Assembly: GCA_050696815.1 (NCBI GenBank)
Contig: JBOGYW010000002.1
Coordinates: 1-58,008, forward strand
DNA: 58,008 nucleotides
Reading direction: 5' to 3'
Source of the DNA: Solirubrobacterales bacterium
GTDB lineage: Bacteria; Actinomycetota; Thermoleophilia; Solirubrobacterales; JACPNS01
The notes below the pieces were generated by a model. It saw nothing but the letters and a program-made list of their open reading frames with translations, did not search any database and was not told the origin of the DNA. Shown piece after piece: positions 1,299-25,781 of this stretch (position 1 is the stretch's first letter; every line of letters starts with the position of its first letter). The position numbers and the translations under genes are program-made.

Positions 1299-1368
1299 GT
1301 CAGGCACCTTACAATTCCCTTACAACTCCCGAACGGCCGACTAACGGGCGGCTCCGAGTATCAAACCT

Positions 1369-4290: not shown

Positions 4291-4331
4291 CGATTACGGC
4301 ATCGGCGCGCCTGCGGCGGCGCTTTACCGGC

Positions 4332-5468
4332 CTAGTCCAGCGCGCGGCTGAGCTGCGTTTGCGGCTCGATCGACCAGCGCTTGGCGATCTCGTCGAGTTC
4401 GTCGCCGATCGGCCAGCTGTCGGGCGCGATCTCGCCGTCGTTGTCCGGCGAACCACCCTTCAGCTTCATCGAGCCGGTGTTGTCGCCGATCGCCCGGATC
4501 TCATCGATCTCGACCGGGCAGAGCACTCCGTCTTCGTTTGACAACACCGCCAGCTCGGCGCGCTTGTCCTCGATCGACTTGGCTCCGCCGAGCTCCTCGA
4601 TCAGGGTCGGCGCGACGCACTTGACCGGTTCGTGCGAGAGGTTCCACAGGCAGGCGGTCTGCAGCAATGTCAACTTGTGCCGCTCGGCGATCGGACGCAC
4701 GCGGTCGAGCCGTTCGTTGCCGCGCTCGATCCAGCCATCGGGCCGGAACATCCGGTGGTCGCGCTCGGGAAACTCATGCCCCGGGCGGACATCGTCGTGG
4801 AACAGCCCGCCGTAGTCGACGACGCGCGTGATCAGCTTCACGTCGTGCTCGACGGCCGCCGGCAGCACCAGCTCGCCCGGCCACGGCTCGAACGGGTTGA
4901 GGATCACCATCGACCAGTCGATCAGCGCGCCGAAGCGCTCGAAGCATTCGATCAGGTCGAGCGTAAAGCCGTTTGCCGGCCCCGGGGCGACGCCCAGCAG
5001 GCGCGTCAAACCGGCGTCGCGCACCGCCGCCATGCCGCTCCAAACGGCTTCGCTCGTGTAACCGGTGCGGTCCGGGTTGTGCAGCATCAACAGGTCGAAG
5101 CTGTCCACGCCGAGCCGCTCGAGGCTGCGCTCGGTCGCCATGCGGATGTAGTCGGCGTAGTCGTCCGGGCCGCGCAGCGCGGCGTCGGTGAAGCGCGGGA
5201 AGCCCTTCGCGCCGGCGCGCTCGCCCTCGTAGAAGTCGTGGCCGATCGCACCGACCAGGCAGTAGCTGTCGCGCGGCAGCCCGGCGAGCGCCTCACCGGC
5301 GAGTTTGTCGGCGTCGCCGGCGCCGTAAGCGTCGGCGGTGATCAGCGTCCGGATCTGCGCGTCGGGGCGCAGCAAAGCGACCAAGCGGTCACGCTCGATT
5401 GCCGCTCCGAAGTTCATGTAGGCGCCGCCACTCCATGTGCCGAGCGCCGTGCGTGTCGGGTCGATCAT
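4332..5468 (-). CDS. Aldo/keto reductase family oxidoreductase
   Basis: LITADAYGAGDADKLAGEAL...SLERLGVDSFDLLMLHNPD...AVRDAGLTRLLGVA. This is the typical AKR D-Y-K-H scaffold arrangement. Confidence 0.85.
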   Translation of the reverse strand: MIDPTRTALGTWSGGAYMNFGAAIERDRLVALLRPDAQIRTLITADAYGAGDADKLAGEALAGLPRDSYCLVGAIGHDFYEGERAGAKGFPRFTDAALRGPDDYADYIRMATERSLERLGVDSFDLLMLHNPDRTGYTSEAVWSGMAAVRDAGLTRLLGVAPGPANGFTLDLIECFERFGALIDWSMVILNPFEPWPGELVLPAAVEHDVKLITRVVDYGGLFHDDVRPGHEFPERDHRMFRPDGWIERGNERLDRVRPIAERHKLTLLQTACLWNLSHEPVKCVAPTLIEELGGAKSIEDKRAELAVLSNEDGVLCPVEIDEIRAIGDNTGSMKLKGGSPDNDGEIAPDSWPIGDELDEIAKRWSIEPQTQLSRALD

Positions 5469-5499
5469 CGCCCGAAAAGATAGCCCGCGCCCGTCGGCG

Positions 5500-6396
5500 C
5501 TAGAGCACGTCGAGCAAGTACAAGGCGTTGAGCAACTTGCCCACGTTCTTACGCGTGACCTTGTGTGCGTGCGGCAGGCGCTTGACCGAAACCAGCTCGT
5601 TGACGTCGGTGAACTCGAAGTCGCCGATCAGCTCATAGCCCTGCGTGGTCAGCGCTGAGGGCGCTTCCACATGCACCGTGCGCATCACGTTTTCGGCGTC
5701 GATTCCGAAGGTGATCCGCGGAAGCTGCTCGCCCGCCGGGGTCGCGTCCGCCCATCCGGTGGGGTCGGACACATAGAGGTGATACGCGCCGTCGTAGACG
5801 ACCTTCGACATGTTCGGCAGCACCGTTTGCGCAAGCGAGGAGAACGGCACCGCGGCGGAGTAAAGCTCGATCGCGACCCCGTCGCTGGTTGTCGAGGGAC
5901 CGTCGTCACGCCAATCCGACAGCGGTGCGACGATCTTGTCGACCAGCGCCAACGGGTCGGCCGCGTGTTTCGCGTGGAACATCCGGTACCAGGAGTCGGC
6001 ATTGATCGGCATGCGGTAGTTCGTACCGCTGGCACGGACGTAGTAGACGCGCTTCAAAGCGACCAGACGGATGAAGAACTTCGCGGCGGACACCGAGATC
6101 GAGTAGTCGCTGCTGAAGCGCCTGTGATTGCCGAGGTTGAAGATGCCGGTCATCTGGTTGACCGAGATCACACGCCGCTTATTGCGGAGGCCACGCTCGG
6201 ACATCGTCGCCGTGAAGCGGCCGGACTCGATCGTCGGGTCGGTCGTGACCAAACCGGCGCGCACAGCCTCGAGCGGGTCGGTCGCATTCGCCACCGGAGC
6301 CGCCACCGCGACGGCGACTACCACGCCCGCCAAAACGAGCAGCATCCTTGCCCTCAAAGTCATAACCCGTGTTTCGGCATCCGGCGCCACGAACAC
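5500..6396 (-). CDS. Secreted hypothetical protein
   Basis: Signal-peptide-like N-terminus (MTLRARMLLVLAGVVVAVAVAAPVANA). The start may be the internal ATG at 6363 rather than GTG 6396. No recognisable catalytic motif. Confidence 0.55.
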   Translation of the reverse strand: MFVAPDAETRVMTLRARMLLVLAGVVVAVAVAAPVANATDPLEAVRAGLVTTDPTIESGRFTATMSERGLRNKRRVISVNQMTGIFNLGNHRRFSSDYSISVSAAKFFIRLVALKRVYYVRASGTNYRMPINADSWYRMFHAKHAADPLALVDKIVAPLSDWRDDGPSTTSDGVAIELYSAAVPFSSLAQTVLPNMSKVVYDGAYHLYVSDPTGWADATPAGEQLPRITFGIDAENVMRTVHVEAPSALTTQGYELIGDFEFTDVNELVSVKRLPHAHKVTRKNVGKLLNALYLLDVL

Positions 6397-6410
6397 AAGC
6401 GAAAAAGTCG

Positions 6411-7088
6411 CTAAAAGCGCGTCGCTTCCTCGAACGGCTCGATCAGCTCCGGCCCTTCGTTGTCGGCGTTTCCGACTGCCGGGGCCACCGCGCGCGCCGT
6501 CATCTCGGTCGACGGAAACGGCTGCAGGGCAGCGAGCGCCTGCTGCGTGTCGTCACCCAGCCACTGCCCGACCTGATCGGGCGTGAGCATCGCCGGCATC
6601 CGGTCGTGCACTCCGGCAACGAGATCGTTCGGCTCGAGCGTGATGATCGCGCAGGAGTCGGTGCCGCCTTCGCCGGTACCGGACTGGAAGAGCCCCGCGA
6701 ACGCGAAGCCCTCGCCGCAGGTTCGCGAGAACCAGTACGGCCGTTTGCGCGCGCCCTTGCCCTCGGCCGCGCGCCACTCGTAGAAGCCGTCGGCCGGGAT
6801 CGCGCAGCGCCCGTCGTCGAGCAGCGCATTCCAGAACCCCGAGCCGGCCAGAGTCTCGGCGCGCGCGTTGATCAGCATCGGCGGGCCGCCCTTCCAGGTC
6901 GACTTGACACCCCAGTGCATCGACTCCGCGACCGTCGAGCCGCCGGCGCCACGGGTCAGCGCAAGCACCATCTGGCCCGGCGCGATGTTGTAGCGCGGCC
7001 GTTTGACGAGGTCGCCGACGCTCGCGAGGTCGGTGTGAAAGGCCGGATCGACCCAGTCGAACGTGCCAAGGGTGTATCTGCCGCACAT
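6411..7088 (-). CDS. SOS-response-associated peptidase (SRAP / YedK-HMCES family)
   Basis: M-C-G-R-Y N-terminus plus RYNIAPGQ, HWGV, INARAET, IPADGFYEW, RMPA motifs. I place the start at the ATG giving Met-Cys (7088), not the track start at 7097, because the family uses Cys2 as nucleophile. Confidence 0.85.
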   Translation of the reverse strand: MCGRYTLGTFDWVDPAFHTDLASVGDLVKRPRYNIAPGQMVLALTRGAGGSTVAESMHWGVKSTWKGGPPMLINARAETLAGSGFWNALLDDGRCAIPADGFYEWRAAEGKGARKRPYWFSRTCGEGFAFAGLFQSGTGEGGTDSCAIITLEPNDLVAGVHDRMPAMLTPDQVGQWLGDDTQQALAALQPFPSTEMTARAVAPAVGNADNEGPELIEPFEEATRF

Positions 7089-13139: not shown

Positions 13140-14228
13140 CTAGGTCGTGAACTTCAACTTTGCTGCCCTGCCCTTGTTCTTGCCCTTGTCGATCGCGTAA
13201 ACACTGAACTTGTGCTTGCCCGACTTCAGGCCCTTCGCCTTGTACGGCGACCGGCAGGTCTTGCTCTTGCTCTTGTCGAGCTTGCAATTGAAGGTCGAGC
13301 CCTTCTCGTTCGAGGAGAAGTAGATCTTCGATCCCTTGCGCTTCGTAATCGTGGTCTTCGGCGCCGTCGTGTCGGTGAACCTCGCGTCGATCGTCTTGTC
13401 GCCGTCCATCTTCACCGCGCACGGCGAGAAGTTGCAGCCGCCGCCCGTGAAGAGCTCAAAGTTCGATCCCGTAGCCGCGTTCGCCTGCAGCGCGACGATC
13501 GTGTTGTCACCGAAGACGACACTGCAGAGCGAGCCGCAGTTGACGCCGCCGACCGACGAGGTCACGGTGCCGCTGCCGTTGCCGGACTTCGTGATCGTCA
13601 GCGCCTGCGCGCCGGTGCTGAACGTCATCGCGAACTGCAGATCCTCGCCGTACAGCGACCATGGGGAGCCGGTCCAGTCGGCTTCAGATGTGCCGTTGTT
13701 CTGGTAGAAGAACGTGCCGCCCGGATAGGCGGTGTCGTTGTCGGTCGAGCGAAACCGGCCGGCGGCGCCGGCGCTGGCTTCAAAGTCCTTCGAGACGCTG
13801 AGGAACAGGACGTACCTGGTCGAAGGCACCAAGGCGATGCCGCCGGTGTTGAAGGTCAGTTCGGTGACGCCGATGCTGAAATCGGTTTCGCGAATACCGC
13901 TCTCGTACAGAGCCGAGCCAGTGGCCTTGCTCGTCCCGTCGTCCCAGGCGTAGACCTCTGCGCGGCTGAGCAGGGTGTTGGGAACGTTTTCGACCCTGAA
14001 CGTAAAGCTGGTCAGCTTCTGGTTCGGGTCGGCAGGGGACGTGATCGTCTGTCCGTACGTCGCCGTGTTCGGGACCGCGTAGCTGCTGATGAAATTGAGG
14101 TTCGCGTCGTCGCGTGTGTCGACGATGGTTGAACTTGCGTGGGCCGCGGGAACGACGAACAACGACAGCGCCGCGGCGAGGATAAGTGAGCGTTTGAGTG
14201 AGGTTTTCATAACGCGAAATCCTGCCAT
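13140..14228 (-). CDS. Secreted protein P3: N-terminal beta-rich domain + divergent InlB B-repeat-like domain + Lys-rich Ig-like C-terminal module (...KLKFTT)
   Basis: Signal peptide MKTSLKRSLILAAALSLFVVPAAHA (likely start ATG 14210). LTITKSGNGSGTVTSSVGGVNCGSLCSVVFGDNTIVALQANAATGSNFELFTGGGCNFSPCAVKMDGDKTIDARF matches the widespread G-x-G-x-V-x-S...C...C...F B-repeat-like pattern. The last ~77 aa resemble the toxin's Ig modules (FNCKLD...CRSPY...GKHKFSVYAID). Confidence 0.75.
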   Translation of the reverse strand: MAGFRVMKTSLKRSLILAAALSLFVVPAAHASSTIVDTRDDANLNFISSYAVPNTATYGQTITSPADPNQKLTSFTFRVENVPNTLLSRAEVYAWDDGTSKATGSALYESGIRETDFSIGVTELTFNTGGIALVPSTRYVLFLSVSKDFEASAGAAGRFRSTDNDTAYPGGTFFYQNNGTSEADWTGSPWSLYGEDLQFAMTFSTGAQALTITKSGNGSGTVTSSVGGVNCGSLCSVVFGDNTIVALQANAATGSNFELFTGGGCNFSPCAVKMDGDKTIDARFTDTTAPKTTITKRKGSKIYFSSNEKGSTFNCKLDKSKSKTCRSPYKAKGLKSGKHKFSVYAIDKGKNKGRAAKLKFTT

Positions 14229-14350
14229 ACCCGTCAGTCACTTAGCTATCGAACGTCCAAGAGAGCACGCTTTCTTCGCGTTTGCTCAACGGAGCAACTC
14301 GACAACCAGCGTTTTTTGGGTCGCTGCCGATGCGATTGCCGGCAGCGCAA

Positions 14351-14806
14351 TCAGTGGCGATACGGCTCTCTCTCGAGCTCCCGGATCTCTACGCCGCGGC
14401 ACACCACTTGAATCGAATGCCCGTCACCCTCCCAAAGGGCCTCGACCATGAGCGGCCGGAAATCATGCGCTTTGGCATGTCGATCAAGGATCAAAGAATC
14501 TGTTTCCGCGCGCAAGAGCGATATTTCCGTATAGCCCCAGCTCACCTGTTCGCGCTCGGCAATGAACTGGTCTGTCATTTCGTTGCGAAATCGGAACTCC
14601 AGAGTGTTCGCGCAAATCAACGACACCCGCAGCGGTTCCTCAACCACGGTTGTTTGGTCCTCACTCCACACGTAATGAATCGCTAGCTCGAAGTCCATTC
14701 CTGGATGCAGCATCCTGGCTTCTACAAGCATGCACTCCTCGAAACGCTTGTAGCGCTCAAGTTCAGCGGAGAGTTGTTCAGCGGTGGTGAGCAGTTTTTT
14801 ATTCAC
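14351..14806 (-). CDS. Candidate immunity protein for the RHS toxin (unknown family)
   Basis: Distal part of track ORF 14351..15334. GTG at 14806 overlaps the toxin stop by 8 nt; ATG 14833 and ATG 14731 are alternatives. Acidic, cytoplasmic-looking, about 150 aa: ...MDFELAIHYVWSEDQTTVVEEPLRVSLICANTLEFRF.... Noticeably more A/T-ending codons than its neighbours. Confidence 0.6.
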   Translation of the reverse strand: MNKKLLTTAEQLSAELERYKRFEECMLVEARMLHPGMDFELAIHYVWSEDQTTVVEEPLRVSLICANTLEFRFRNEMTDQFIAEREQVSWGYTEISLLRAETDSLILDRHAKAHDFRPLMVEALWEGDGHSIQVVCRGVEIRELEREPYRH

Positions 14807-17800
14807 GCAGATAAATGCCGTGCGAGCCTTCATTCGTACCTGGATCACGGCCGTACTCGTCAAGATACTGGCCGTGCCTGTTGCGCATACGGATCTCGGT
14901 GCCGCCTTCGCGGGGACGCATGCGCACCTGCTCTCCGCCGGGACCTTCAAACAGCGGACCTTTTCCATCATTCGACACGCGCTGCTTCCAGCCGCGCCGT
15001 GTAAGAATTTCTCGCACCTGAGCAGCGGTCTTGTCCCGCACCGAGCCAGTTTCAAATAGCTCACGCATTTCTGGACTCGCATCGCGCAATGCGCCTGGAA
15101 GTCCACCGGGCGGACGGGACGGCTCATCGCCACCGCGGCCAGACCCAGGCGGCGGGTCCTTGGGCTCCTTGGACAGGCCGGTTTTCTGCTTGAAAACCTC
15201 CCAATGCGTATGCACCATGGCCTTGGTCTGGTCCCACAAGTCGTACCAAGGATCGACTCCGCAGTCGAAACACGGGGAGCCCCCGGGGGGAAACGGGCGA
15301 GGCCTGTCGATCGCAGATCGCCCATCGAGGTCAAATTTTACCGACGGATCGTTCAGCGCGTACGCAAACGGATTCTGCGTTTGCGGGGAACTGCGTTCGC
15401 CCGGAAGGGGATCGCGCGAAACAAACCGCCCCGAACTCGGGTCGAAGATCCGCGCGCCCATGTGGATCTGATCAGTTCCATACATGGCGGAACGGCCGTG
15501 CGCACCGAGGTAGCCGAAAGAGTCGTCGTCCAGACCGCTTCCACCGCTGGCGCCGCCGATATCAAGATCGACACCAAACGGGTCGTAATCACGCACGTCT
15601 GAAAGGTCACCCGACTCGTTGAGATTCGCGAGCACCGATCCATGCTCGTCAACCAGCGGGTAGGTCGCCGACGCTGCGTTGACGTCGGTTTCGATCAGTC
15701 CACGCGGCCCGTATGCGTAAGCCTTCGAGCGCGTCGCCGCCGAGGTCGTTCCGTCGCCGACGTGAGTGGACTCCGCGACCGGACGATCGTCCAACTCGTA
15801 GTTGTACGTGCGCGTGACTGAATCGCCCGAGGTCTGGACCAACCGATTCAGCGCGTCGTACGAGAACGTCTGCTCGCCGTTCTGGAGTGAATCCTTGCCT
15901 GTCAGGCGATCCAGTGAGTCATACGCGTACGTCGTCGCGCCGGACGGTCCGGTGTCAGACGCTGTGCGACCCTGGTCGTCGTACGTGTACGTGTGCTCGC
16001 CGGGAGCGGACGTCATCTGGTTGAGAGCGTCGTAGGTGTACGCGTCACCGTTCTTCGTCAAACGATTGCCGGCCGCGTCGTACGTGTACGTATCCGCGTG
16101 GTCACCGAAATCGACGTCGGTCAAGCGGTCAAGCGCGTCGTACCCGTAGTCCTGAGTGCTCGTCGGCGTTTCGCGGTGCGTCGGGTTGCCGTTTGCGTCG
16201 TAGCGGTAGAAGAGCCGCGAGCGGAGCTCGCCGCTGCCGTTTCGCGAGTACGAGCGCGTCAACCGGTTCGCGAGGTCGTAGAAGTTCTGCTGGCGCAGAA
16301 CTGTCTTTGCCACGCCACCCGCCGCCGGACGCGTCGTTGTCCGCTCGATCAAGTTCCCGCTCCCGTCGTACGCGAAGCGGTGAACCCGGCCGTTCGGCAT
16401 CGTGACCGACGTGATGCGGTTTCGTGAGTCGTAGTCGAACTCGGTGGTTCCGCTGACATTTGTGCGCGACGTGACGTTGCCGTTCGCGTCGTAGCCGAAC
16501 GTCGTCGAAACTCCGAGCGCATCAGTCGCCGACTCCATTCGATCTGCGTCGTCGTATCCGAAATGGACCACTCGGTCGGCAGCGTCCTTCGCATCGGTCA
16601 GCCGGCCGTCGGCGTCGTAAGTGAACTCTTCGGTCGAATCGTCCGCGAGCGTGATGTTCTTTACATGGTTGAGTGCGTCGTACTCAAACTCGGTGGTCTC
16701 GCCTTCCACGTCCTTCGTCAGCAAGTTTCCGACGTCGTCGTATGTGTAGGTCGTCGTTAGGCCGAGTGGCTGCTCGACGACGGTCTGGTTTCCCGCCTCG
16801 TCGTATTGATAGGTCGTGACGTTGTCCCTCGGATCCGTTTTTCGAATCGCCTCGCTGTCCGCGTTGTACTCGTAGGTCGTTTCTCCGCCCTTGGCATCGA
16901 TGACCTTCGTGAGGTCTCCGGCGAGGTTGTATTCGAACTTCGTCGAGTGGCCCCGAGCGTCGGTTTCAGCGGTCTTGCGGCCCAGCACGTCGGAGGAATA
17001 AGTGACCGCCGCTCCCTCCGGACCAACTTCACGGACTACTTGCCCGTTCGCGTTGCGAATCGTGCGCCCGATGCCACCTCGTGCATCGGTTTCGCTAGCG
17101 ACCTCGCCGAACTCGTCGTAGCCGTAGCTCGCCGTGGTCTTCCCTTCGATGCCAGTGGTTGACAGCCGGCCGAGGCCGTCGTAGTCGGAAGTCGACTCAT
17201 TGCCGTTGGGGTCCGTCACCTTGGTGACATGCCCCGAGTCGTCGTAGTCAAACGAGGTCGTGCCTCCCTCTGGATCCTCGACCGACTCGACGTCTCCCAT
17301 CGGCAGGTGGGAGTACGTCGTCACGTGGTCCATCGGGTCGGTGACCGTTTCGACGTTTCCGTGCTCGTCATAGGTGTACGAGGTCTCGCCGTCCAACGCG
17401 TCGATCACGTGCTCGACGCGACCGGCGTCACCGTAGGTGTATTCGGTTCGGTTTCCATTCGCGTCCACCGTCGCCGAAAGCACCCCGGGTGCGTCGTACT
17501 CGAACGATGTCGACTCCGTCGCCCCACTGACCACCTTGTGTTCAGCCTGTAGATCGTTCGTGTCTTCGTCGTAGTCGTACGACGTCACCCGCCCGGTCGG
17601 GTCGGTTTCGGACGTCTTGTTGCCGTGCGTGTCGTAGGTGTACGTCGTCGTCCGGCCAGCGGCGTCGACAATCGACGTCAGTCGGTTGTTTGTGTAGGTG
17701 AGCGTCGATTTGCGCCCATCAGGCCGCACGACCGACGTGATGTTGCCGTTCGCGTCTCGGTGGTACTCGCTGCGGATCCCGCCCGGCTTCGAAACGGAAG

Positions 17801-20800
17801 TCACGTTTCCGTGCCCATCGACGCGATACAGCGTCGACTTGCCGGTTGCATCGGTGACACGCGTCGAACCATCGGAGTACTCGAAATCGAAGTGCTGGTC
17901 GGTGCCGATGTCCTGATGAACCACGCGTCCGAACTCGTCGTACTCGTTCTCGACGATCGTGCGCTCGTCGGCGTCGGTCGCGGAAACCATCATTCCGTTG
18001 TCCTCGTCGTAGCCGTACGCGACTCGGCCCTCTTCGGGGTTGGTGACTGCGGACAGGGAAGATCCGGCATGGTCGTAGAGCACCGTCCGGCCATTCGAAT
18101 CGGTCGCCGATTCGAGCATTCCGTCTTCGCCATAACTGAACGTGATCGACTCGCCGTCTGTGTTCGTCTCGCTGACGAGCTTGCCGTCGTCGTATGAGTA
18201 CGAGATTCGGTTGCCGCTCTTGTCAACCTCGTCGATGATCTCGCCGTCGAGCGTGTAGCGAGTTGTGTTATCGCCATACGGATCGGTGAGAACGCGAATG
18301 TCTCCGAGCGTGCCGTCATGCACGGCGGTGAGCTGCTCAGTGTGGCCGGCCGGTGCCAAGTAGCTGCCATCGGTTTGCCTCGTGAAGTCGTACGAGCGGC
18401 CATCGGCTTGGATGACGCGCACCGAATCGTTCCCAAGCGGGAACGCACCGGCTGATCCAGCCCACGACCAGCCTTGGCCGATGGAGGTCGTGCGGGGGTC
18501 ACGCGAGTTGTACGTTCGTTCGAGGGTCAGCTTCGGCCCGTGGCCGCTGACGGCGAGATCAGTCTTGTTGAGCACAAAGTTGCCAGTGCCCGGGTCAACG
18601 GGATCGCCGACCCATGAGCCCCTCCGGGCCCCAAGCGCGTCAAGCAGCGTCAGATAGTCGCTCGGATTGCAGAACTTCACCAAGACGTCTGGGTCGTTCT
18701 TGCACTGCTCGGCCGCGTGCTTCCAGTCCATGTTGTCAAGCGAGACCGTGATTTCGGGACAAGCTTCGCTGCATTCTCCTCGCTCAACTCCGGAGAAGAA
18801 CTCGTCATACGCGTCGTCTGTCGCAAGCCAAGTGACCTCCTGATTGAGCATGAAGTCGTCGATCGTCGAGATCGCGTTCTGTTCCTCGTCGTAGTACGTA
18901 TAGAGACAGGTAAGCGGAGTCAACGTGGTTTCAACGTTGCCCTGAGGCTCTCCGAGGTCGTTCCAACGAGTACCCAGATACGAAGAGCGCGTCGGGTACT
19001 GGTCGATCTCATACGGATCACCGGGTCTCACAACCCAACAACCGCCTGCAGGCAGGTCGAAATCCTGGTGCGTGTCGTTGTCTATCCCCCAGCACCCGTC
19101 GCCCGATCCGCCTCCGCACGCGCTCTCGCCGTTCCAGGCACGGTCAGTGCCTTTCATCACCATTCGCCCGTTGGCATTGTCGAACTGCCAACCGTTCACG
19201 TGCACGTCGTAGCCCGGGTCGTTTTCTCCAGGCCCACTGTGCAGCGACGAGTAGTCGCCACCGTGGAACAGAAACTTGAGATTCGAGATCAAGCCGGGAG
19301 CAGGCGAGTCCACTTCGAAGCTGTCGATGATGTTGAGCTGTAGTTCTCCGGTGCTGTTCGCGGGAGCAAAACCAAGCGTGCTCATGAACGCATGCCGCGA
19401 CGGCAGGATGCCGAACAGCTTCAGTGCGTCAATCGCGTCCTGACTGTTCCAGGGAGTCTCTTCCCCTTCGTCTCCGAGGGCGAGGTTCGCAACAGCGTGC
19501 TTCACGTTGTCCCGAGTCTTCGCGTTGAGCGTGTCGCCGCCCGGTTCGTGGTCTACGGCGTCTTCGTAGCCGGCCGTGCTCGCAACGACTGGCACCGAGA
19601 AGGATCGAACTACCGGCCGCGTCGCGGCGCCCGTCGCGCCGCGCTCACGAACAGCGAAAGTGTGATTGCCGGCCGGCAACTCGGGCGAGTCATACGGCGA
19701 TTCGCAGGCCGCGAAGGAATCGCTGTCGATCCTGCACTCGAAGCGCACGCCGACGCTCGAGGACTCGAAGCCAAACGCCGCGAACGAGCCGCTGACCTCC
19801 TCGTCGTCGGGACCGAACGTGAAGGAAATTGGGCTCGTTGTCGTCGGCTCTTCGCTGGTCGCCTCAGATGAGTCCACGTAGAAGTCGCGGACCTCGGTCG
19901 TCGCGGCCTTTCGCCGCACGCTCGGGCTGCGCACTTCGAGGCGGTGCTTGCCTTCCTCCAGGTCGCTGATGGCCAGAGACGGCGTGCAGATCTTGAAGTC
20001 CGAGCCATCGATCGAGCATTCGAGATCGATACCCGTCGGGTCGTCCGACTCGCTGAAGCTCGCGGGGGTGATGGTGATGTCGCCTGTCGGAAACACCATC
20101 GCGTCGGTCATCGGCTTCGTGGTCACAGCGGTCGCACCGGCGTCCTGGGAAGTGACGCTGATCGTGATGTGTTCGTGAGCCGCGACGTCGGGCCCGAACT
20201 CCAAATGTGCCGGCGACGCATCTTTGAGTCCATTGGCGATCGCACGCACGGCGAAAGTCTGCGGCCCAGACCAGCCAGTTGGCGGCTGTTCGTAGTTAGC
20301 TGCGTATGGGGACGTGCACGGCAGCCAATCGCCGTCATCGACACTGCATTCGAAATGCGCGCCGGCGATCGTCGAGTGGAAGGTGAACGTCGGCGAAGCT
20401 CCGTCGATCCTGCTTTCCGGATGACCGACGGTCAGCTCGGACGGAGGATCGAGAATCGTGTCGGGTCGTAGATCTTCGTCCACGGCGACCGTGAACGAGC
20501 GACTCGCCGGCGTGGCATCGGTCGGCCCGGCGGGGATACTGGCCGCGACGGTGAACGTGTGCTCGCCATCCTCGAAGTTGGCGATTTCGAGTGGCGGTTC
20601 ACATTCCGTCGGAGTTGCTTCGTCGAGCGAGCATTCAAATGTGACTCCAGAGGACGTAGCGTCAAAGTCAAATGTGACGTGGTCGCCGCTGACAGTTGAG
20701 TCTTCAGCCGGGCCGTCGGCGATCTCCGTGTCGACGCTCGAAGCCGTCGCCGCGGTCGAGCCGGTGGCGGTCACGTGACGCACGATTCCCCGACTCTTGT

Positions 20801-23800
20801 TGCCGTCGCCGTCGACGGAACGCACGGCAAATGTGCGCTCTGACAGCGAACTCGACGGAAGCTCGAACGGCGATGTGCAGGTCGCGAAGGCGCCCGAATC
20901 GACTGAACACTCGAAGGATGCAGTCCAGGCGGGCGCGCCGAACGAGTACTCGATCGCGCCGACGGTGACGGTGTCGCCGTCGGCGGGTCCAGCGGTGATC
21001 GTCGGCAGCGCCGGCGGTGCAGTCACCACGAACAGGGCCTCGGCTGGAGTCTGGTCTGTTGCACCGGAGATCGATGCCCGCACCGCAACCGTGTGGTTGC
21101 CAACCGGCGAAGCCGAGCCGGTCGCAAGAGTCAGCTTGTTCGGCGACGAGCAGGCGACCCAGCTCTCCACGTCGATCTTGCATTCGTAGGTCGCGTCGGC
21201 GTCTGACGAGCTGAACTCGATCGTCGGCGTAGCGTTGCTGCTTCTCGCCTCAGGTGCCACGTCGATCGACGTCTCAGGCTCAACCGGATCAAGCGTCGAG
21301 ACCCAAGAGATCGTCGCGGGTGTCGTCTCTGAGCGGCCGTCGTAGCTGGCTCGCACCGAGAAGGTCTGAATGCCCGGCTGGTTGATTCCCTGAATCTCGG
21401 GGTCGCCCGGGTTGCACCTCACCCAAGGCCGGCTGTTCAGCCTGCATTCGCGCTCGATGCCTGCCGGCATTTCATGACCGTCGGCCCAACTCGTGTAATA
21501 CAACGACGGGAGCCAGTTGATCGAGCTGAAGTCGATCCACGAAGGATCGGGGTTGGCGTGGTTCGTGATGCAGGCGATCTCGGAATTGACGTCGGAGGGG
21601 TCCGGGTCGTACACGACCTGATCTTCGGCCAGGCTTGTGTTCCCAACTTCGTCAACGCCGTAGACAATGAAGTTTGCGCGGCAGACATCTAGGTCGGTCG
21701 CCACGTATGGCGACTCACACGGTTCGAGTTCTCCTCCGTTGAAGCCACATTCGTAATGGTCGATGTCAGACGCCGACGAATGAAACTCAAACTGATGCGA
21801 CGACGACGTCTCGACTTCGCCGCCATCGCGCGGATTGTCGATCGCGACTCCAGGTTCGGTGGTGTCCAGCGTGAAGTTGAACGTGTGCGTATCACCGATG
21901 TGCGTTCCATTCGACTGCTTGGCCCACAACTGGATCTCGTACGTGCCCTCGTTCCAACTGTTGTTGACCGACAACGGGATCGAACAGTTTTGATTGACGC
22001 TGCTCGTTGTCGACTCTGTGCCTTGAACATGGCAGCCGATACCCGGCACGCTAAACGCGGTGTCAACATCGAACCCTCCGTTGCCAGGTCCGATGACCGA
22101 TGGCACCCCGTCAGGGAACTGCAGCACGGTTGCGGGGTCGTAAACCCTGAACGAACTTCCGACGCCAACGTCCGAATTGCCCAGCGTGTCGGTTGCGCGA
22201 ACCTTGAAGTAGTGGAGTCCATAAGCGATCGAGGTGACCTCGTAGGGCGAGGTGCAGCTTTCGAAGGTGCCTTCATCAAGCGCGCACTCATAGCTGGCCG
22301 AGGCGTCGTCCGAATAAAAGCTGGCGCTACGGGACATACCGGACTGATACATCGACGGGTAGCTTGCCCAGGAAACGGCCGGCGCTTGAACATCGACGGA
22401 GAAATGCCGGACTGTCGGCGTCGGATCAACTCCACCGTGGCCGTCCACAGCGCGTACTACGAGGATCTTGGAGCCTGTCCCGCCCCAGCCTCCGCCGGGC
22501 GTGAACGGATTGCTACAAGACGAGAAGTCCTCGTCTTCCGGGTTCGAGAGATTGACTGCGCACTCGTAGGAAACCCCGGTGTCGCTGGAAAAGCCAAAGG
22601 CCGCTCCATCATTTGCCGTCGTCCCACTCTCTGCCACGCCACTGCTGATCGCGGTCGAGGGCGGATACGCCACGTACGACCGCTCACAGTCCGTCAGCGT
22701 GTCGGCACCGCCGTCATCGACCACCGCGAAGTCATATCCATCCCCACAGTCGGCGGAGTTCGCGTGTCCTTCTCGCACGAGCAGTTCGTCGTCGCCGGTG
22801 CCACCCTCCAGATTCTCGACGTCAGATCCGATCTGATCCTGTTCCCCGCTCTCGCCGTCGTTTGCCACGCCATCGAGGGAGAGGCTCAGCGCATTGGACC
22901 GTGACGAATAGTCCGCGGTGTCGTTGCCCGAGCCACCCGCGATCGTGTCTTGGCCGCTGCCAGGGTCCAGCGAATCGGCTCCGTTTCCACCAGACAGAGA
23001 ATCGTCGCCTCCAACGCCATAAACGGTGTCGTTGCCGTCATTTCCAGAAAGCGTGTTCGCTCCCGAACTTCCAGTCAAGGTGTCGCTGCCGGAGCCGCCA
23101 GCGATTCCTTCAACGTCGCTGGCGAGGTTGTCGCCCTCGCCGCTTTCGCCATCGTTCGCCGTACCGTCGATCGACGCGCTCACCGCCGCTGTTCGCGATG
23201 CATAGGTCGCGGTGTCGGTGCCTCCGTCGCCGTTGACCACGTCGGCGCCGAGACCCGGCTCAACCGAGTCGTTCCCGCTCCCGCCGGAAATCGTGTTGCT
23301 GGAGGAGTTACCGGTCAAGGCGTCGGCATAGTCCGACCCGGTGAGATTCTCGATCTGAGTGATTGTGTCTGAGCCGGCGCCGACGGTGTTCTGGCTTGAC
23401 GTGGTCGCCAGCGAGACGGTTACGGCAGACGAAGCAGAACCGTACGTCACCGTGTCCGTGTCGCTTCCGCCAGTAAGCGTGTCGTTGCCGGAAAGGCCCT
23501 CAATGCTGTCGTCGCCTGCACCGCCAGAGAGCGTGTTTGCACTCGCGTCACCTGTCAGCGTGTCGCCATAGCCCGAGCCGGTGAGATTCTCGAATGTCGC
23601 GAGCGTGTCCGAGCCGGCGCCGCCAGTGCTCTGGCTGGTCGAGACCGCAAGCGAAACCGATACGCCGGCAGCAGCCGCCGCGTAAGTGGCCGTGTCCGTG
23701 CCGCCACCGCCGGTCAGCGTGTCGTTACCTGCGAGGCCTTCGACCGAGTCGTTGCCATTGCCACCCTGGATGTCGTTGGCAGACGAGCTACCTGTCAGCG

Positions 23801-25781
23801 TGTCGTTGCCCGAGCCGGTCGTGATGTTCTCGACGTCTCCGCGCACGTTGTCGCCCTCGCTCGCGGCACCGTCGTTGGCGGTACCGTCGAGCGTGACGGT
23901 GAGGTCGCTCGTGCGCGTCGAGTAGTCCACTCGGTCATCGCCGTTGTCGCCGTACACGTCGTCGGCGGCGAGACGCGGGTTGATCGAGTCGTTGCCGTCG
24001 CCGCCGTGAATCGTGTTCGCCAAATCGTCGCCACCGAGCGTGTCGCCGTACGCCGACCCGGTCAGGTTCTCCACCTGGGTGATCGTGTCCGTACCGGCGC
24101 CCGTGGTGTTCTGCGAAGTCGTCGTAACCAGGGCGACGGTCACCGCAGAAGCCGCGTTCGCGTAGGTGACCAGGTCCGTGCCGCCGCCACCGGTGATCGT
24201 GTCATCCCCGGCACCGCCTTCGAGCGTGTCGTTTCCGTTGTTGCCCGTCAGGCCATCGTTGCCCGACGTGCCGGTGAGCGTGTCGTCGTAGTCGCTGCCC
24301 CACACTCGTTCGGCGCCGCTGATCGTGTCGGTGCCTGCGCCGCCGGTGTTCTGCGCGCTGGAGTTAGCGAGGCTGACCGTGACTGCCGAGCCCGCGGTCG
24401 AATAATCCACACGGTCGGTTCCGGAACTGCTGTCAAGGATGTCGTCGCCGTCGCCGCCGGTCAGGAAGTCATCGCCGCCACCGCCATAGATCGAGTCGTC
24501 ACCGCCCGCGGCGCTGATCGTGTCACTGCCGGTTCCGCCGGTCAGTGCGTTGGCGGAACTGTTGCCAGTTAGAAAGTCGTTGCCGGATCCCGTGATCGCG
24601 TTCTCGACGTCGGACGCGATGTTGTCGTTTTCACCGGACTCGCCGTCGTTGGCGGTATCGGTCAGTGAGACGTTGACGTTGGCGGTGCGGCCCGAGTAGT
24701 CAACCGTGTCGACGCCGGCGTTGCCGTTGACGGTGTCGGTGCCTGTGCCTGGGTCTACAAGGTCGTTGCCGTTGCTGCCGCTGATCGTGTCGTTGCCGCC
24801 GGCGCCGCTTAGCGTGTCGTTGCCGTCATTGCCAGTAAGTCCGTCGGCGCTCGAGCTGCCGGTTAGCGTGTCGTCGTACGCGCTGCCCCACAAGCGCTCG
24901 CAGCCGCTGATCGTGTCGTTGCCCGCGCCAGCGGTGTTTTGCGAACTTGTTGTCGCAAGCGAAACCGTCACGGCAGAACCCGCGCTTGAGTAGTCGTCGC
25001 GGTCCGTGCCAGAGCCACAGGAAATGGTGTCGTCACCATCGCCGCCGGTCAGGAAGTCGTCGTCGCTGCCGCCGGTCACTGTGTCTGCGCCAGCCGAGCC
25101 GCCGATCGTGTCGCTGCCTGCGCCGCCGTCGAGCGAGTTGGCAGAGCTGTTGCCCGTCAGAAAGTCGTTGCCCGTACCACCGGTCGCGTTTTCGACGTCG
25201 CTCGCGACGTTGTCGTTCTCGCCCGAAGCGCCGTCATTAGCCGTGTCCGTGAGCGAGACGTTCAGGTTCGCGCTGCGTGCGGAGTAGTCGGCGGTGTCTG
25301 CCCCAGAGCCACCGTTGATCGTGTCCGTCGCTGTGGAGGTGATGATCGTGTCGTTGCCCCCGCCGGCGTTGATCGTCGCTCCAACGGAAGAAGTCGACCG
25401 CAACGTGTCGTTGCCGTCGTCGCCATTGATCGTGATCGCGGTGATGCCGGTCGAAGAGCACGTCGCCGTGTGCGAGTCGACTGATGTGCAGCCCGAAGTC
25501 ACGCCCAAGGTGGCGCCGCTGTCGGCGATCGTGAAGGTCGAGCCGGAAAGCGAGACGGTGACATCGTTCGCTTCGCCGCTTGCCGCGGTTAAGACGAGAG
25601 TGTTCCCGGATGTTCCTGCCGAGCTCGCGAACGATGTTGACGCAGCGATTAGTCCGACGAGAGCAAACAGGACAGAAGCGCTCGCAAAGGAGGCCAGCCG
25701 GGCGATCCTCGTGACAGACGCGCGCAGGGCACAGCGGTGATGCCCGCCGGTGCGTTTTCCGAAGCAGTGCGAAGTCTTCAA
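14799..25781 (-). CDS. Giant secreted polymorphic toxin (3660 aa): Sec signal, RTX-type Ca-binding repeats, about 11 Ig-like Cys-pair modules, RHS/YD-repeat shell, variable C-terminal toxin (WapA-like)
   Basis: Uninterrupted ORF from TTG 25781 to TAA 14799. Motifs read directly from the translation; see the sub-features below. Confidence 0.9.
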   Translation of the reverse strand: MKTSHCFGKRTGGHHRCALRASVTRIARLASFASASVLFALVGLIAASTSFASSAGTSGNTLVLTAASGEANDVTVSLSGSTFTIADSGATLGVTSGCTSVDSHTATCSSTGITAITINGDDGNDTLRSTSSVGATINAGGGNDTIITSTATDTINGGSGADTADYSARSANLNVSLTDTANDGASGENDNVASDVENATGGTGNDFLTGNSSANSLDGGAGSDTIGGSAGADTVTGGSDDDFLTGGDGDDTISCGSGTDRDDYSSAGSAVTVSLATTSSQNTAGAGNDTISGCERLWGSAYDDTLTGSSSADGLTGNDGNDTLSGAGGNDTISGSNGNDLVDPGTGTDTVNGNAGVDTVDYSGRTANVNVSLTDTANDGESGENDNIASDVENAITGSGNDFLTGNSSANALTGGTGSDTISAAGGDDSIYGGGGDDFLTGGDGDDILDSSSGTDRVDYSTAGSAVTVSLANSSAQNTGGAGTDTISGAERVWGSDYDDTLTGTSGNDGLTGNNGNDTLEGGAGDDTITGGGGTDLVTYANAASAVTVALVTTTSQNTTGAGTDTITQVENLTGSAYGDTLGGDDLANTIHGGDGNDSINPRLAADDVYGDNGDDRVDYSTRTSDLTVTLDGTANDGAASEGDNVRGDVENITTGSGNDTLTGSSSANDIQGGNGNDSVEGLAGNDTLTGGGGTDTATYAAAAAGVSVSLAVSTSQSTGGAGSDTLATFENLTGSGYGDTLTGDASANTLSGGAGDDSIEGLSGNDTLTGGSDTDTVTYGSASSAVTVSLATTSSQNTVGAGSDTITQIENLTGSDYADALTGNSSSNTISGGSGNDSVEPGLGADVVNGDGGTDTATYASRTAAVSASIDGTANDGESGEGDNLASDVEGIAGGSGSDTLTGSSGANTLSGNDGNDTVYGVGGDDSLSGGNGADSLDPGSGQDTIAGGSGNDTADYSSRSNALSLSLDGVANDGESGEQDQIGSDVENLEGGTGDDELLVREGHANSADCGDGYDFAVVDDGGADTLTDCERSYVAYPPSTAISSGVAESGTTANDGAAFGFSSDTGVSYECAVNLSNPEDEDFSSCSNPFTPGGGWGGTGSKILVVRAVDGHGGVDPTPTVRHFSVDVQAPAVSWASYPSMYQSGMSRSASFYSDDASASYECALDEGTFESCTSPYEVTSIAYGLHYFKVRATDTLGNSDVGVGSSFRVYDPATVLQFPDGVPSVIGPGNGGFDVDTAFSVPGIGCHVQGTESTTSSVNQNCSIPLSVNNSWNEGTYEIQLWAKQSNGTHIGDTHTFNFTLDTTEPGVAIDNPRDGGEVETSSSHQFEFHSSASDIDHYECGFNGGELEPCESPYVATDLDVCRANFIVYGVDEVGNTSLAEDQVVYDPDPSDVNSEIACITNHANPDPSWIDFSSINWLPSLYYTSWADGHEMPAGIERECRLNSRPWVRCNPGDPEIQGINQPGIQTFSVRASYDGRSETTPATISWVSTLDPVEPETSIDVAPEARSSNATPTIEFSSSDADATYECKIDVESWVACSSPNKLTLATGSASPVGNHTVAVRASISGATDQTPAEALFVVTAPPALPTITAGPADGDTVTVGAIEYSFGAPAWTASFECSVDSGAFATCTSPFELPSSSLSERTFAVRSVDGDGNKSRGIVRHVTATGSTAATASSVDTEIADGPAEDSTVSGDHVTFDFDATSSGVTFECSLDEATPTECEPPLEIANFEDGEHTFTVAASIPAGPTDATPASRSFTVAVDEDLRPDTILDPPSELTVGHPESRIDGASPTFTFHSTIAGAHFECSVDDGDWLPCTSPYAANYEQPPTGWSGPQTFAVRAIANGLKDASPAHLEFGPDVAAHEHITISVTSQDAGATAVTTKPMTDAMVFPTGDITITPASFSESDDPTGIDLECSIDGSDFKICTPSLAISDLEEGKHRLEVRSPSVRRKAATTEVRDFYVDSSEATSEEPTTTSPISFTFGPDDEEVSGSFAAFGFESSSVGVRFECRIDSDSFAACESPYDSPELPAGNHTFAVRERGATGAATRPVVRSFSVPVVASTAGYEDAVDHEPGGDTLNAKTRDNVKHAVANLALGDEGEETPWNSQDAIDALKLFGILPSRHAFMSTLGFAPANSTGELQLNIIDSFEVDSPAPGLISNLKFLFHGGDYSSLHSGPGENDPGYDVHVNGWQFDNANGRMVMKGTDRAWNGESACGGGSGDGCWGIDNDTHQDFDLPAGGCWVVRPGDPYEIDQYPTRSSYLGTRWNDLGEPQGNVETTLTPLTCLYTYYDEEQNAISTIDDFMLNQEVTWLATDDAYDEFFSGVERGECSEACPEITVSLDNMDWKHAAEQCKNDPDVLVKFCNPSDYLTLLDALGARRGSWVGDPVDPGTGNFVLNKTDLAVSGHGPKLTLERTYNSRDPRTTSIGQGWSWAGSAGAFPLGNDSVRVIQADGRSYDFTRQTDGSYLAPAGHTEQLTAVHDGTLGDIRVLTDPYGDNTTRYTLDGEIIDEVDKSGNRISYSYDDGKLVSETNTDGESITFSYGEDGMLESATDSNGRTVLYDHAGSSLSAVTNPEEGRVAYGYDEDNGMMVSATDADERTIVENEYDEFGRVVHQDIGTDQHFDFEYSDGSTRVTDATGKSTLYRVDGHGNVTSVSKPGGIRSEYHRDANGNITSVVRPDGRKSTLTYTNNRLTSIVDAAGRTTTYTYDTHGNKTSETDPTGRVTSYDYDEDTNDLQAEHKVVSGATESTSFEYDAPGVLSATVDANGNRTEYTYGDAGRVEHVIDALDGETSYTYDEHGNVETVTDPMDHVTTYSHLPMGDVESVEDPEGGTTSFDYDDSGHVTKVTDPNGNESTSDYDGLGRLSTTGIEGKTTASYGYDEFGEVASETDARGGIGRTIRNANGQVVREVGPEGAAVTYSSDVLGRKTAETDARGHSTKFEYNLAGDLTKVIDAKGGETTYEYNADSEAIRKTDPRDNVTTYQYDEAGNQTVVEQPLGLTTTYTYDDVGNLLTKDVEGETTEFEYDALNHVKNITLADDSTEEFTYDADGRLTDAKDAADRVVHFGYDDADRMESATDALGVSTTFGYDANGNVTSRTNVSGTTEFDYDSRNRITSVTMPNGRVHRFAYDGSGNLIERTTTRPAAGGVAKTVLRQQNFYDLANRLTRSYSRNGSGELRSRLFYRYDANGNPTHRETPTSTQDYGYDALDRLTDVDFGDHADTYTYDAAGNRLTKNGDAYTYDALNQMTSAPGEHTYTYDDQGRTASDTGPSGATTYAYDSLDRLTGKDSLQNGEQTFSYDALNRLVQTSGDSVTRTYNYELDDRPVAESTHVGDGTTSAATRSKAYAYGPRGLIETDVNAASATYPLVDEHGSVLANLNESGDLSDVRDYDPFGVDLDIGGASGGSGLDDDSFGYLGAHGRSAMYGTDQIHMGARIFDPSSGRFVSRDPLPGERSSPQTQNPFAYALNDPSVKFDLDGRSAIDRPRPFPPGGSPCFDCGVDPWYDLWDQTKAMVHTHWEVFKQKTGLSKEPKDPPPGSGRGGDEPSRPPGGLPGALRDASPEMRELFETGSVRDKTAAQVREILTRRGWKQRVSNDGKGPLFEGPGGEQVRMRPREGGTEIRMRNRHGQYLDEYGRDPGTNEGSHGIYLRE
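14802..15317 (-). other. C-terminal polymorphic toxin tail (172 aa) of the RHS protein, family not recognised
   Basis: Begins right after NPFAYALNDPSVKFDLDGR, which is the RHS core end and equivalent to the canonical DPxGL boundary. A Pro/Gly-rich linker is followed by a basic ~85-aa tail: TAAQVREILTRRGWKQRVSNDGKGPLFEGPGGEQVRMRPREGGTEIRMRNRHGQYLDEYGRDPGTNEGSHGIYLRE. Confidence 0.6.
15318..18611 (-). other. RHS / YD-repeat shell and RHS-associated core
   Basis: Entry motif GDPVDPGTGNFVLNKTDLAVSGHGPKLTLERTYNS. Dozens of Y-D-x-x-G-N/R-x-x-x-x-x-D repeats (e.g. YTYDTHGNKTSETDPTGRVTSYDYD). End motif GARIFDPSSGRFVSRDPLPGE...NPFAYALNDP. Confidence 0.88.
18612..19586 (-). other. Unassigned ~320-aa Cys-rich module between the Ig repeats and the RHS shell
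   Basis: aa ~2066-2390: ...HGGDYSSLHSGPGENDPGYDVHVNGWQFDNANGRMVMKGTDRAWNGESACGGGSGDGCWGIDNDTHQDFDLPAGGCWVV...ECSEACPEITVSLDNMDWKHAAEQCKNDPDVLVKFCNPSDY. About 10 Cys; no motif I can name. Confidence 0.4.
19587..22664 (-). other. About 11 tandem Ig-like modules with a conserved Cys pair
   Basis: Recurrent pattern F-x-F-x-S-x(4-8)-[FY]-E-C-x-[LVI]-D-x(5-8)-C-x-S-P-x(8-15)-G-x-H-T-F-x-V-R-A-x-D. Examples: TFECSLDEATPTECEPP...GEHTFTVAA; RFECRIDSDSFAACESPY...GNHTFAVRE. Confidence 0.7.
22692..25439 (-). repeat. RTX-type (hemolysin-type Ca-binding) nonapeptide array built from two alternating super-modules
   Basis: G-G-x-G-x-D-x-[LIF]-x runs throughout. Five copies of D-Y-S-x-R-x-x-x-[LV]-x-V-S-L-[TD]-x-T-A-N-D-G-x-S-G-E-x-D-N...S-D-V-E-N alternate with five copies of S-A-V-T-V-S-L-A-x-x-S-x-Q-N-T-x-G-A-G-x-D-T-I...E-N-L-T-G-S. 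aa ~165-350 and ~360-545 (nt 24147..25289) are a clear ~190-aa tandem duplication. Confidence 0.8.

Follow-up and report, generated by a model that had tools for sequence, protein, structure and literature searches.

A probable toxin/immunity cassette of a previously unnamed family on a WapA-like RHS protein from a Solirubrobacterales bacterium

In a 58,008-nucleotide stretch of DNA from a Solirubrobacterales bacterium (GenBank assembly GCA_050696815.1, contig JBOGYW010000002.1, positions 1 to 58,008; the whole stretch is hereafter called the window), the C-terminal tail encoded by a gene for a 3660-amino acid (aa) RHS protein and the open reading frame (ORF) that follows this gene very probably make up a toxin/immunity cassette whose family had no name before, mounted on an RHS protein that resembles WapA and is predicted to be Sec-exported. 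Systems in which an RHS polymorphic toxin is followed by its immunity gene are already well known, and such toxins often have unannotated tails. The novelty lies in a defined pair of toxin and immunity families, represented by ~77 sequence clusters and at least six phyla, together with a confident model that has no solved structural relative.

Limits and homologues of the toxin domain at the C-terminus

The ORF of the polymorphic toxin, as taken from the ORF list and its translation, occupies positions 14799..25781 on the minus strand. Positions 14802..15317 of the same strand translate to its C-terminus, and to exactly the 172 aa that a preliminary description of the window had set apart as a toxin tail. 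That description placed the end of the RHS region at DLDGR/SAIDRP, correctly so: the match to the RHS-associated core model TIGR03696 (Rhs_assc_core) ends at residue 3487, within ...NDPSVKFDLDG, and the tail begins one residue further on. It also divided the tail into a linker and a basic, ~85-aa globular end; the two-part layout was borne out, but the conserved unit is ~100 aa long, and two of its helices had wrongly been put in the linker.

Because homologues align only over the part near the C-terminus, ~100 aa are taken as the conserved unit and the upstream ~70 aa as a linker. The toxin domain (14802..15104, minus strand; residues ~3560–3660; isoelectric point (pI) 9.3), as delimited by phmmer, alignment, and AlphaFold2, starts at ...GLPGALRDASPEMRELF..., ~15 residues ahead of the globular end of the preliminary description. 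The linker or pre-toxin stretch (15105..15317, minus strand; ~71 aa; pI ~6), delimited by the limits of the homologue alignments, contains the motif CFDC, is rich in Pro and Gly, and is not conserved. Among the 77 homologues, the alignments start at tail residue ~59–87 for almost all and at residues 45–52, in the Pro/Gly-rich stretch, for three, and they reach tail residue about 160–171.

An exhaustive phmmer search with the tail against a library of 1.84 billion cluster representatives returned these 77 clusters (50% identity) at E ≤ 1e-3, 34 of them at E ≤ 1e-10, with a best E of 6.5e-20, a sequence similarity far beyond chance. The family is a C-terminal one: in every target save one, the match lies no more than 29 residues from the C-terminus, usually 2–5. 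The exception is a weakly matching metagenomic repeat protein (P0077; 534 aa) with six tandem 57-aa repeats (ADVSPRFQEIFENGHVDEPDAKACRLILERE...), whose similarity is confined to the N-terminal, two-helix part of the domain (E 8e-4); this match is probably due to chance, though it could mean that the helical part is a separable module. Members of the family are named "hypothetical protein" in every case for which a source name is available.

Of the homologue searches, the exhaustive one alone brought the family to light. A word-indexed homologue search with the 172-aa tail gave no match, not even to the window's own protein, and a genome scan with the window's own tail was likewise empty, this copy being too divergent. 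Scanning with a 10-sequence sub-alignment succeeded and found 12 loci. Those in Actinomycetota belong to Actinoplanes, Promicromonospora, Actinomyces, and Streptomyces; the others belong to Pyrinomonadales (Acidobacteriota), Gemmatimonadota, two Bacteroidota metagenome-assembled genomes (MAGs), a Verrucomicrobiaceae isolate, a Chloroflexia MAG, and one further MAG. No member of the family was found in the plasmid and phage collections.

The domains upstream of the tail are those of polymorphic toxins. RHS repeats, PT-HINT, or both were detected in 13 of the 17 long members scanned, some of which also carry DUF6531, DUF6443, or DUF4214, and the remaining 4 gave no Pfam match. In short members, the end of an RHS core (...NPxxxxDPxGL/M) or of a Hint domain (...LVHN) is found just ahead of the domain. 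The carriers thus vary, with the toxin domain standing behind RHS repeats, PT-HINT, or DUF6443-RHS and also in short orphan ORFs that follow other toxin cassettes or an IS110 transposase.

Individual loci illustrate these arrangements. On the contigs L002, L003, and L004 (Logan SRR116594xx, 1..5860), an RHS protein of 3456 aa that has another tail, together with its Imm32 immunity gene, precedes an IS110-family transposase, which is called as two ORFs (DEDD_Tnp_IS110 and Transposase_20); the orphan cassette comes next—a snapshot of cassette stacking or displacement. At another locus (L005; JGI 3300082193 contig, 1..5886), at least three short PT-HINT/orphan toxin ORFs are arrayed upstream, the last pair of the array belongs to the toxin/immunity family of the window, and two of the following ORFs have faint HEAT-like matches. 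On a further contig (L001; ENA ERZ25039554 contig_25011, 4382..6782), a toxin/immunity pair stands by itself as a gene call of 110 aa and lacks an RHS gene in the 6 kb around it; it adjoins a DUF433/PIN toxin–antitoxin pair and a helix-turn-helix regulator, and thus has an orphan or toxin–antitoxin-like context.

The probable immunity gene

The cognate immunity gene (14351..14833, minus strand), which encodes an acidic protein with a pI of about 5, was assigned by homology to the ORFs directly 3′ of the toxin domain in 15/15 other loci. It starts either at GTG 14806 (151 aa), where it overlaps the toxin stop codon in GTGAATAA, or at ATG 14833 (160 aa), as in the public gene call P0109, and ends at 14351 in a reading frame other than that of the toxin. 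The gene is translationally coupled to the toxin gene and is intact, with the three invariant residues of its family and the near-invariant E126 all retained.

ORFs directly 3′ of three unrelated members of the toxin family align with the immunity ORF of the window and share the motifs F-x-E-C and N-W-G-x-x-E. The pairing was tested by local hmmsearch on the six-frame ORFs of 16 loci, the window included. An ORF of the immunity family directly follows the toxin domain, often overlapping it, in all 16 (E 4e-12 to 2e-66), which come from Actinomycetota, Acidobacteriota, Gemmatimonadota, Bacteroidota, Verrucomicrobiota, and Chloroflexota; across these loci, the immunity pairing is obligate. In the control set of 160 unrelated loci (835 kb), 80 of them other RHS loci extended by 3 kb on the downstream side, the toxin and immunity profiles gave 0 matches at E ≤ 1. 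The two partners also have opposite charge characteristics, with pI values over the 16 loci of mostly 9–11.6 for the toxin domains and 4.6–6.3 for the immunity proteins (≤5.7 in 14/16).

The immunity ORF gave no match in Pfam, NCBIfam, or PADLOC, and a single chance-level match in PHROGs (E 0.34). Searching Pfam with the 16 immunity homologues at E ≤ 1 yielded two chance matches only, with none to Imm*, SUKH/SMI1, or barstar-like families, and the profile of the immunity family matched no PDB sequence.

The RHS carrier

From the N- to the C-terminus, the 3660-aa protein comprises a predicted Sec signal peptide, RTX nonapeptide repeats, paired-Cys modules, DUF6531, RHS/YD repeats, the RHS core, the linker, and the toxin domain. 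Pfam matches were obtained to RHS_repeat (2e-93; 15 stretches), HemolysinCabind (2.7e-62; 18 stretches of RTX nonapeptides), and DUF6531 (7e-16), and NCBIfam matches to YD repeats, the RHS core, and TIGR03696. The N-terminus (...RIARLASFASASVLFALVGLIAASTSFA|SS...), as read from the sequence, is predicted to be a Sec signal peptide. Since the host is a monoderm actinobacterium, the carrier was taken to be a WapA-like exported RHS toxin rather than an effector of a type VI secretion system (T6SS).

The RHS-associated core, or autoproteolytic plug, which forms the boundary between the RHS shell and the cargo, lies at 15321..15587 (minus strand) and matches TIGR03696 over profile positions 1–75 of 76 (E 1.6e-9; 38.1 bits, with the cut-off at 32.5). 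Two candidate cleavage motifs are found in this region, DPLPG and, 22 residues on, DLDGR; the Asp and Gly of both motifs are kept, but the second has other residues in place of P and L, and the arrangement is not canonical. In Rhs proteins as described by Jurenas et al., two DPLGL motifs lie 17 residues apart, and the second, which contains the catalytic Asp, stands directly before the C-terminal autocleavage site (PMC8636562).

The N-terminal part of the carrier has features of its own. At least seven modules of ~90–190 aa with paired Cys residues (motif [FY]EC..D......C.SP; residues ~100–2350) have no Pfam match, and these modules, the 18 RTX stretches, and the Sec-type signal peptide all precede DUF6531 and the RHS shell. 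For a monoderm actinobacterium, an RHS toxin joined to RTX repeats looks unusual. When GTDB species representatives were searched for orthologues of the RHS core of the window with other tails, the only relatives were ~25–38% identical, too distant to show allelic tail replacement at this locus.

Searches against known families and folds

The preliminary description had proposed that an unclassified tail next to a dedicated ORF amounts to a new toxin/immunity family, and this is upheld by the C-terminal family, by the homologous acidic ORF in 16/16 loci, and by the lack of any library, PDB, or fold match. With the Pfam 2025, NCBIfam 2026, and PDB 2026 releases, the tail matched nothing in Pfam (E ≤ 10), NCBIfam, PADLOC, or PHROGs, and 66 toxin homologues matched nothing in Pfam at E ≤ 1. 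Searches of PDB sequences, including those with profiles, returned chance matches only (an antibody heavy chain, a phage protein, and toxin B at E 0.45). No description of the toxin/immunity family was found in the literature by keyword search, and a literature search by sequence motif turned up nothing of relevance.

For structural searches, the AlphaFold2 model built with the 66-sequence alignment was used. Foldseek against PDB gave 258 matches at E ≤ 10, 50 of which were listed; none was significant, the best having an E of 0.59 over 37 columns, with template modeling (TM) scores of at most 0.41. Against BFVD, too, nothing significant was found (best E 0.18). No established toxin family, then, was matched with high probability by the profile searches or by Foldseek. 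The preliminary description had also seen no HNH signature, and this holds for the family as a whole: only one His (H92) is conserved, and neither the tail nor the 66 homologues gave a Pfam match of the HNH type. The His-(His)/Asn/His metal-finger motif of the HNH/EndoVII fold is likewise not found in the family, whose sole conserved His stands near the C-terminus.

Predicted structure and conserved residues

The model based on the 66-sequence alignment is a confident one, with a predicted local distance difference test score (pLDDT) of 94.3 and a predicted TM score of 0.85; AlphaFold2 reached a pLDDT of 82.9 from a single sequence. In domain numbering, the predicted elements are helices 8–13 and 24–32, strands 37–40, 47–50, 56–62, and 65–71, and a long ordered C-terminal segment, so that the domain is predicted to have an alpha-alpha-beta4 layout with a C-terminal loop.

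Columns conserved at ≥90% include R28, L31, G35, F36, G46, Y47, L48, F49, E55, R58, M60, R62, W66, R69, N72, N76, L78, D79, G82, H92, and I94. The polar set among them, R28, E55, R58, R62, R69, N72, D79, and H92 (92–100%), is kept in full in the window copy, in which these residues are R3590, E3617, R3620, R3624, R3631, N3634, D3641, and H3654, respectively. Predicted strand 3 has R58, M60, and R62 at alternating positions, as strand 4 has D67 and R69. These residues would share one face of a hairpin, with E55 at its entrance and the sole conserved His contributed by the C-terminal segment; a shared sheet face of this kind would correspond to the usual site geometry of small RNase toxins.

The stretch G-Y-L-F-x-N-x-x-G-E was considered as the G-x-x-F-x-N-x-E-x-x-LP motif of barnase and RNase Sa and then dropped; hhalign chose the same stretch, with a probability of 0.2%.

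Proposed mode of action and alternative explanations

By analogy with characterized RHS toxins, the RHS shell would enclose the ~170-aa cargo, the RHS-associated aspartyl-protease plug would cut after the DLDG(R) motif, and the ~100-aa basic domain would be delivered into a neighboring cell, where it is proposed to act as an enzyme. The co-translated acidic protein of ~150 aa would bind and block the domain, with the result that the producer is protected.

A basic domain of ~100 aa that combines helices and a beta-sheet with a Glu, several Arg residues, and a C-terminal His has the look of metal-independent RNase toxins such as barnase, RNase Sa, and YoeB. Furthermore, Zhang and co-workers reportedly found in 2012 that nucleases are the commonest activity among short polymorphic-toxin tails. 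From its size, basic charge, and conserved residues, the domain stands an even chance of being a nuclease that acts in the cytoplasm, with an RNase the likelier best guess than a DNase; an activity other than that of an RNase or DNase is rated at evenly balanced chances, too. In a tentative assignment of less than even probability, the domain is a metal-independent RNase in which E3617 and H3654 serve as acid/base pair and R3620, R3624, and R3631 bind phosphate on the exposed face of the beta3-beta4 hairpin. A metal-dependent DNase is unlikely.

Several observations weigh against this interpretation. A pairing of basic toxin and acidic immunity protein is common to many toxin classes. No nuclease family was found by Pfam, NCBIfam, the PDB profile search, Foldseek (among the matches listed), or the hhalign panel, in which comparisons with barnase, RNase Sa, YoeB, RelE, and HicA, with hand-entered reference sequences, gave probabilities of 0.1–0.4%. 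Structures of the barnase/RNase Sa, RelE/YoeB, and HicA types are not among the 50 Foldseek matches listed. With respect to release of the cargo, the second motif of the carrier is DLDGR rather than DPxGL, and the motif spacing of 22 differs from the 17 of the published pattern (PMC8636562). In addition, a 231-aa Streptomyces atratus protein (GGT34515.1) that may or may not be a family member, with Rhs_assc_core at its N-terminus and an unannotated C-terminus, was selected by the algorithm of Nachmias et al. but failed toxicity validation (Table S3, bioRxiv 10.1101/2021.10.19.465003). Lastly, the window copy is the outlier of the family, the only one in which the otherwise invariant W66 is replaced by T, Y47 by P, and F36 by W, and it could be weakened or inactive.

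This last point leads to a first alternative, namely that the window copy has decayed into a non-toxic remnant and persists only as cargo of the RHS protein. None of the 66 aligned sequences is more divergent than this copy (29–49% identity), its three substitutions at near-invariant aromatic positions are unique, and M60R and N76Q are found as well. However, the reading frame is intact over 3660 codons, all eight conserved polar residues are kept, the immunity gene is intact and translationally coupled with its key family residues kept, and AlphaFold2 predicts a confident fold even without an alignment, all of which make decay improbable. A toxin with a non-nuclease target—an enzyme consuming NAD+ or other nucleotides, a modifier resembling an ADP-ribosyltransferase, or a stoichiometric inhibitor of an essential protein—is a more serious possibility, if still on the unlikely side. 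It agrees with the finding of no nuclease signature of any kind; the four conserved Arg residues with Glu, Asp, and His would suit the binding of a nucleotide cofactor too, and the NADase TNT (4qlp_A) is a weak, non-significant Foldseek match (E 3.8, query-normalized TM 0.41). However, ~100 aa is smaller than any known ADP-ribosyltransferase or NADase toxin, and the order of the conserved residues S7, R28, and E55 departs from R-S-E and H-Y-E; as for action at membranes, the tail is without hydrophobic segments.

Structural relatedness to a small metal-dependent DNase has also to be considered, with PT7(Bc) (PDB 8owu) as the candidate relative. This 78-aa toxin degrades DNA in an ethylenediaminetetraacetic acid-sensitive manner, is fused to LXG and, from this fusion, predicted to be secreted by a type VII secretion system, and was described as a novel fold (bioRxiv 10.1101/2021.10.19.465003). 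Chain C of 8owu is the top Foldseek match of the single-sequence model (E 0.069; probability 0.84; TM 0.42/0.51, the latter target-normalized; 78 columns, that is, the whole chain), and PT7, which needs an Asp and a His (D37 and H47), resembles the family of the window in this respect, as D79 and H92 are conserved there. The match is nevertheless not significant and remains a weak lead: 8owu is not among the 50 matches listed for the better, alignment-based model, and the profile of the 66 sequences, run against all PDB sequences at E ≤ 10, returned three irrelevant matches without 8owu. The partners differ in size (117 aa for PIM7 against about 150 aa here), the carriers differ (LXG against RHS/PT-HINT), and the reported taxa of PT7, Firmicutes and Proteobacteria, do not overlap with the phyla of the family loci examined. 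Such a relationship is quite improbable. Less probable by far is a 16S rRNA-cleaving domain of the colicin E3 type, suggested by a loose resemblance that the preliminary description had noted in the last 30 residues. The best local hhalign alignment does fall on the same stretch (domain residues 75–97 against E3 residues 79–101), but its probability is 0.0% (with a hand-entered C-terminal sequence of E3), neither the tail nor the 66 homologues match PF09000, and structures of E3 or CdiA-CT(ECL) are not among the 50 Foldseek matches listed. Moreover, the catalytic D-x-x-H-x-x-x-E block of E3 has no counterpart in the family, whose one conserved His sits six residues from the C-terminus of the window protein. 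By the measure of sequence and fold, the colicin E3 resemblance is thus a matter of chance.

Downstream region and other features of the window

Four nucleotides past the stop codon of the immunity gene, a repeat search found a perfect 8-bp GC-rich inverted repeat with a 10-nucleotide loop (14322..14347, no strand assigned; CGCTGCCG / CGGCAGCG). It may mark the end of the operon; a terminator scan found no canonical terminator, the coding strand having an A-run after the hairpin and no U-tract. The ORF that lies directly 3′ of the immunity gene (13140..14228, minus strand; 362 aa) has a clear signal peptide (MKTSLKRSLILAAALSLFVVPAAHA), a Lys-rich C-terminus, and no Pfam match.

The GC content at 14500..14999, in the region of the toxin domain and immunity gene, falls to 0.56–0.58, compared with 0.61–0.67 in most surrounding 500-nucleotide windows, occasional ones of which have 0.56–0.59. 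This dip is consistent with a horizontally exchanged cassette. A neighboring AidB-like gene shares ~80% identity with genes from MAGs of Solirubrobacterales and Thermoleophilaceae, which points to the monoderm actinobacterial host. Elsewhere in the window, a 501-aa ORF (56482..57987, minus strand) carries NHL repeats and a thrombospondin type-3 repeat and weakly matches teneurin-NHL; it is another surface protein of the teneurin/RHS world.

Significance

RHS and other polymorphic toxins have been a productive source of enzymology, having yielded tRNases, ADP-ribosyltransferases, NADases, and (p)ppApp synthetases. It is conceivable, with a probability somewhat short of even, that the ~100-aa domain founds a superfamily of enzymatic toxins with a new fold, that its ~150-aa partner represents a new immunity fold, that their mechanism or target lies outside the characterized polymorphic-toxin domains, and that cassette exchange has carried them into at least six phyla, chiefly of bacteria from soil and freshwater. 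With clear limits to the domain, a candidate catalytic set of eight residues, a cognate inhibitor, a confident model, and natural variants from six phyla, the pair is a well-defined target for study. Its characterization would add one toxin family and one immunity family to annotation resources and might reveal a new nuclease fold or cellular target. In addition, a WapA-like, Sec-dependent RHS weapon is now documented in the little-studied Thermoleophilia.

Comparison with known systems

WapA of Bacillus subtilis, together with WapI, was reportedly described by Koskiniemi and co-workers in 2013 as a Sec-exported RHS/YD polymorphic toxin of a Gram-positive bacterium. The system of the window resembles WapA-type toxins in its signal peptide (predicted here), long YD/RHS shell, RHS-associated core, small variable C-terminal toxin, immunity gene directly 3′, and monoderm host. 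By contrast, neither its toxin nor its immunity protein is related by sequence to a WapA-CT/WapI pair of Pfam or PDB, and its carrier is distinguished by the 18 RTX stretches, the paired-Cys modules, of which there are at least seven, and the motif DLDGR.

With the T6SS Rhs toxins—Rhs1-Tre23 of Photorhabdus laumondii (PMC8636562) and TseI of Aeromonas dhakensis, the latter cited in that article as an autoproteolytically released T6SS Rhs toxin—the window protein shares the Rhs_assc_core plug before the cargo, two Asp-containing motifs, and a toxin that is presumably encaged. It differs from them in that no PAAR, VgrG, or Eag was seen at the window, where a predicted Sec signal is found instead, in that DPLPG and DLDGR lie 22 residues apart as against 17 for the two DPLGL motifs, and in its new cargo family. 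The PT1–PT9/PIM families (bioRxiv 10.1101/2021.10.19.465003) are similar in being unannotated C-terminal toxin domains of ~80–120 aa with downstream immunity genes, mostly without a structural homologue. PT7 in particular is set apart from the window family: no sequence similarity to PDB chains was found, the fold match was not repeated with the confident model, and carriers, immunity size, and taxa differ.

Barnase/RNase Sa, RelE/YoeB, and colicin D/E5 are said to have been brought together by Zhang and co-workers in 2012 as the BECR grouping. Although no sequence, profile, or Foldseek relation to these small RNase toxins was detected, a topological likeness is suggested by the model: the domain is ~100 aa long and basic, is predicted to have N-terminal helices followed by a four-stranded antiparallel sheet, and, like YoeB and RNase Sa, shows a conserved Glu, several Arg residues on the sheet, and one His near the C-terminus.

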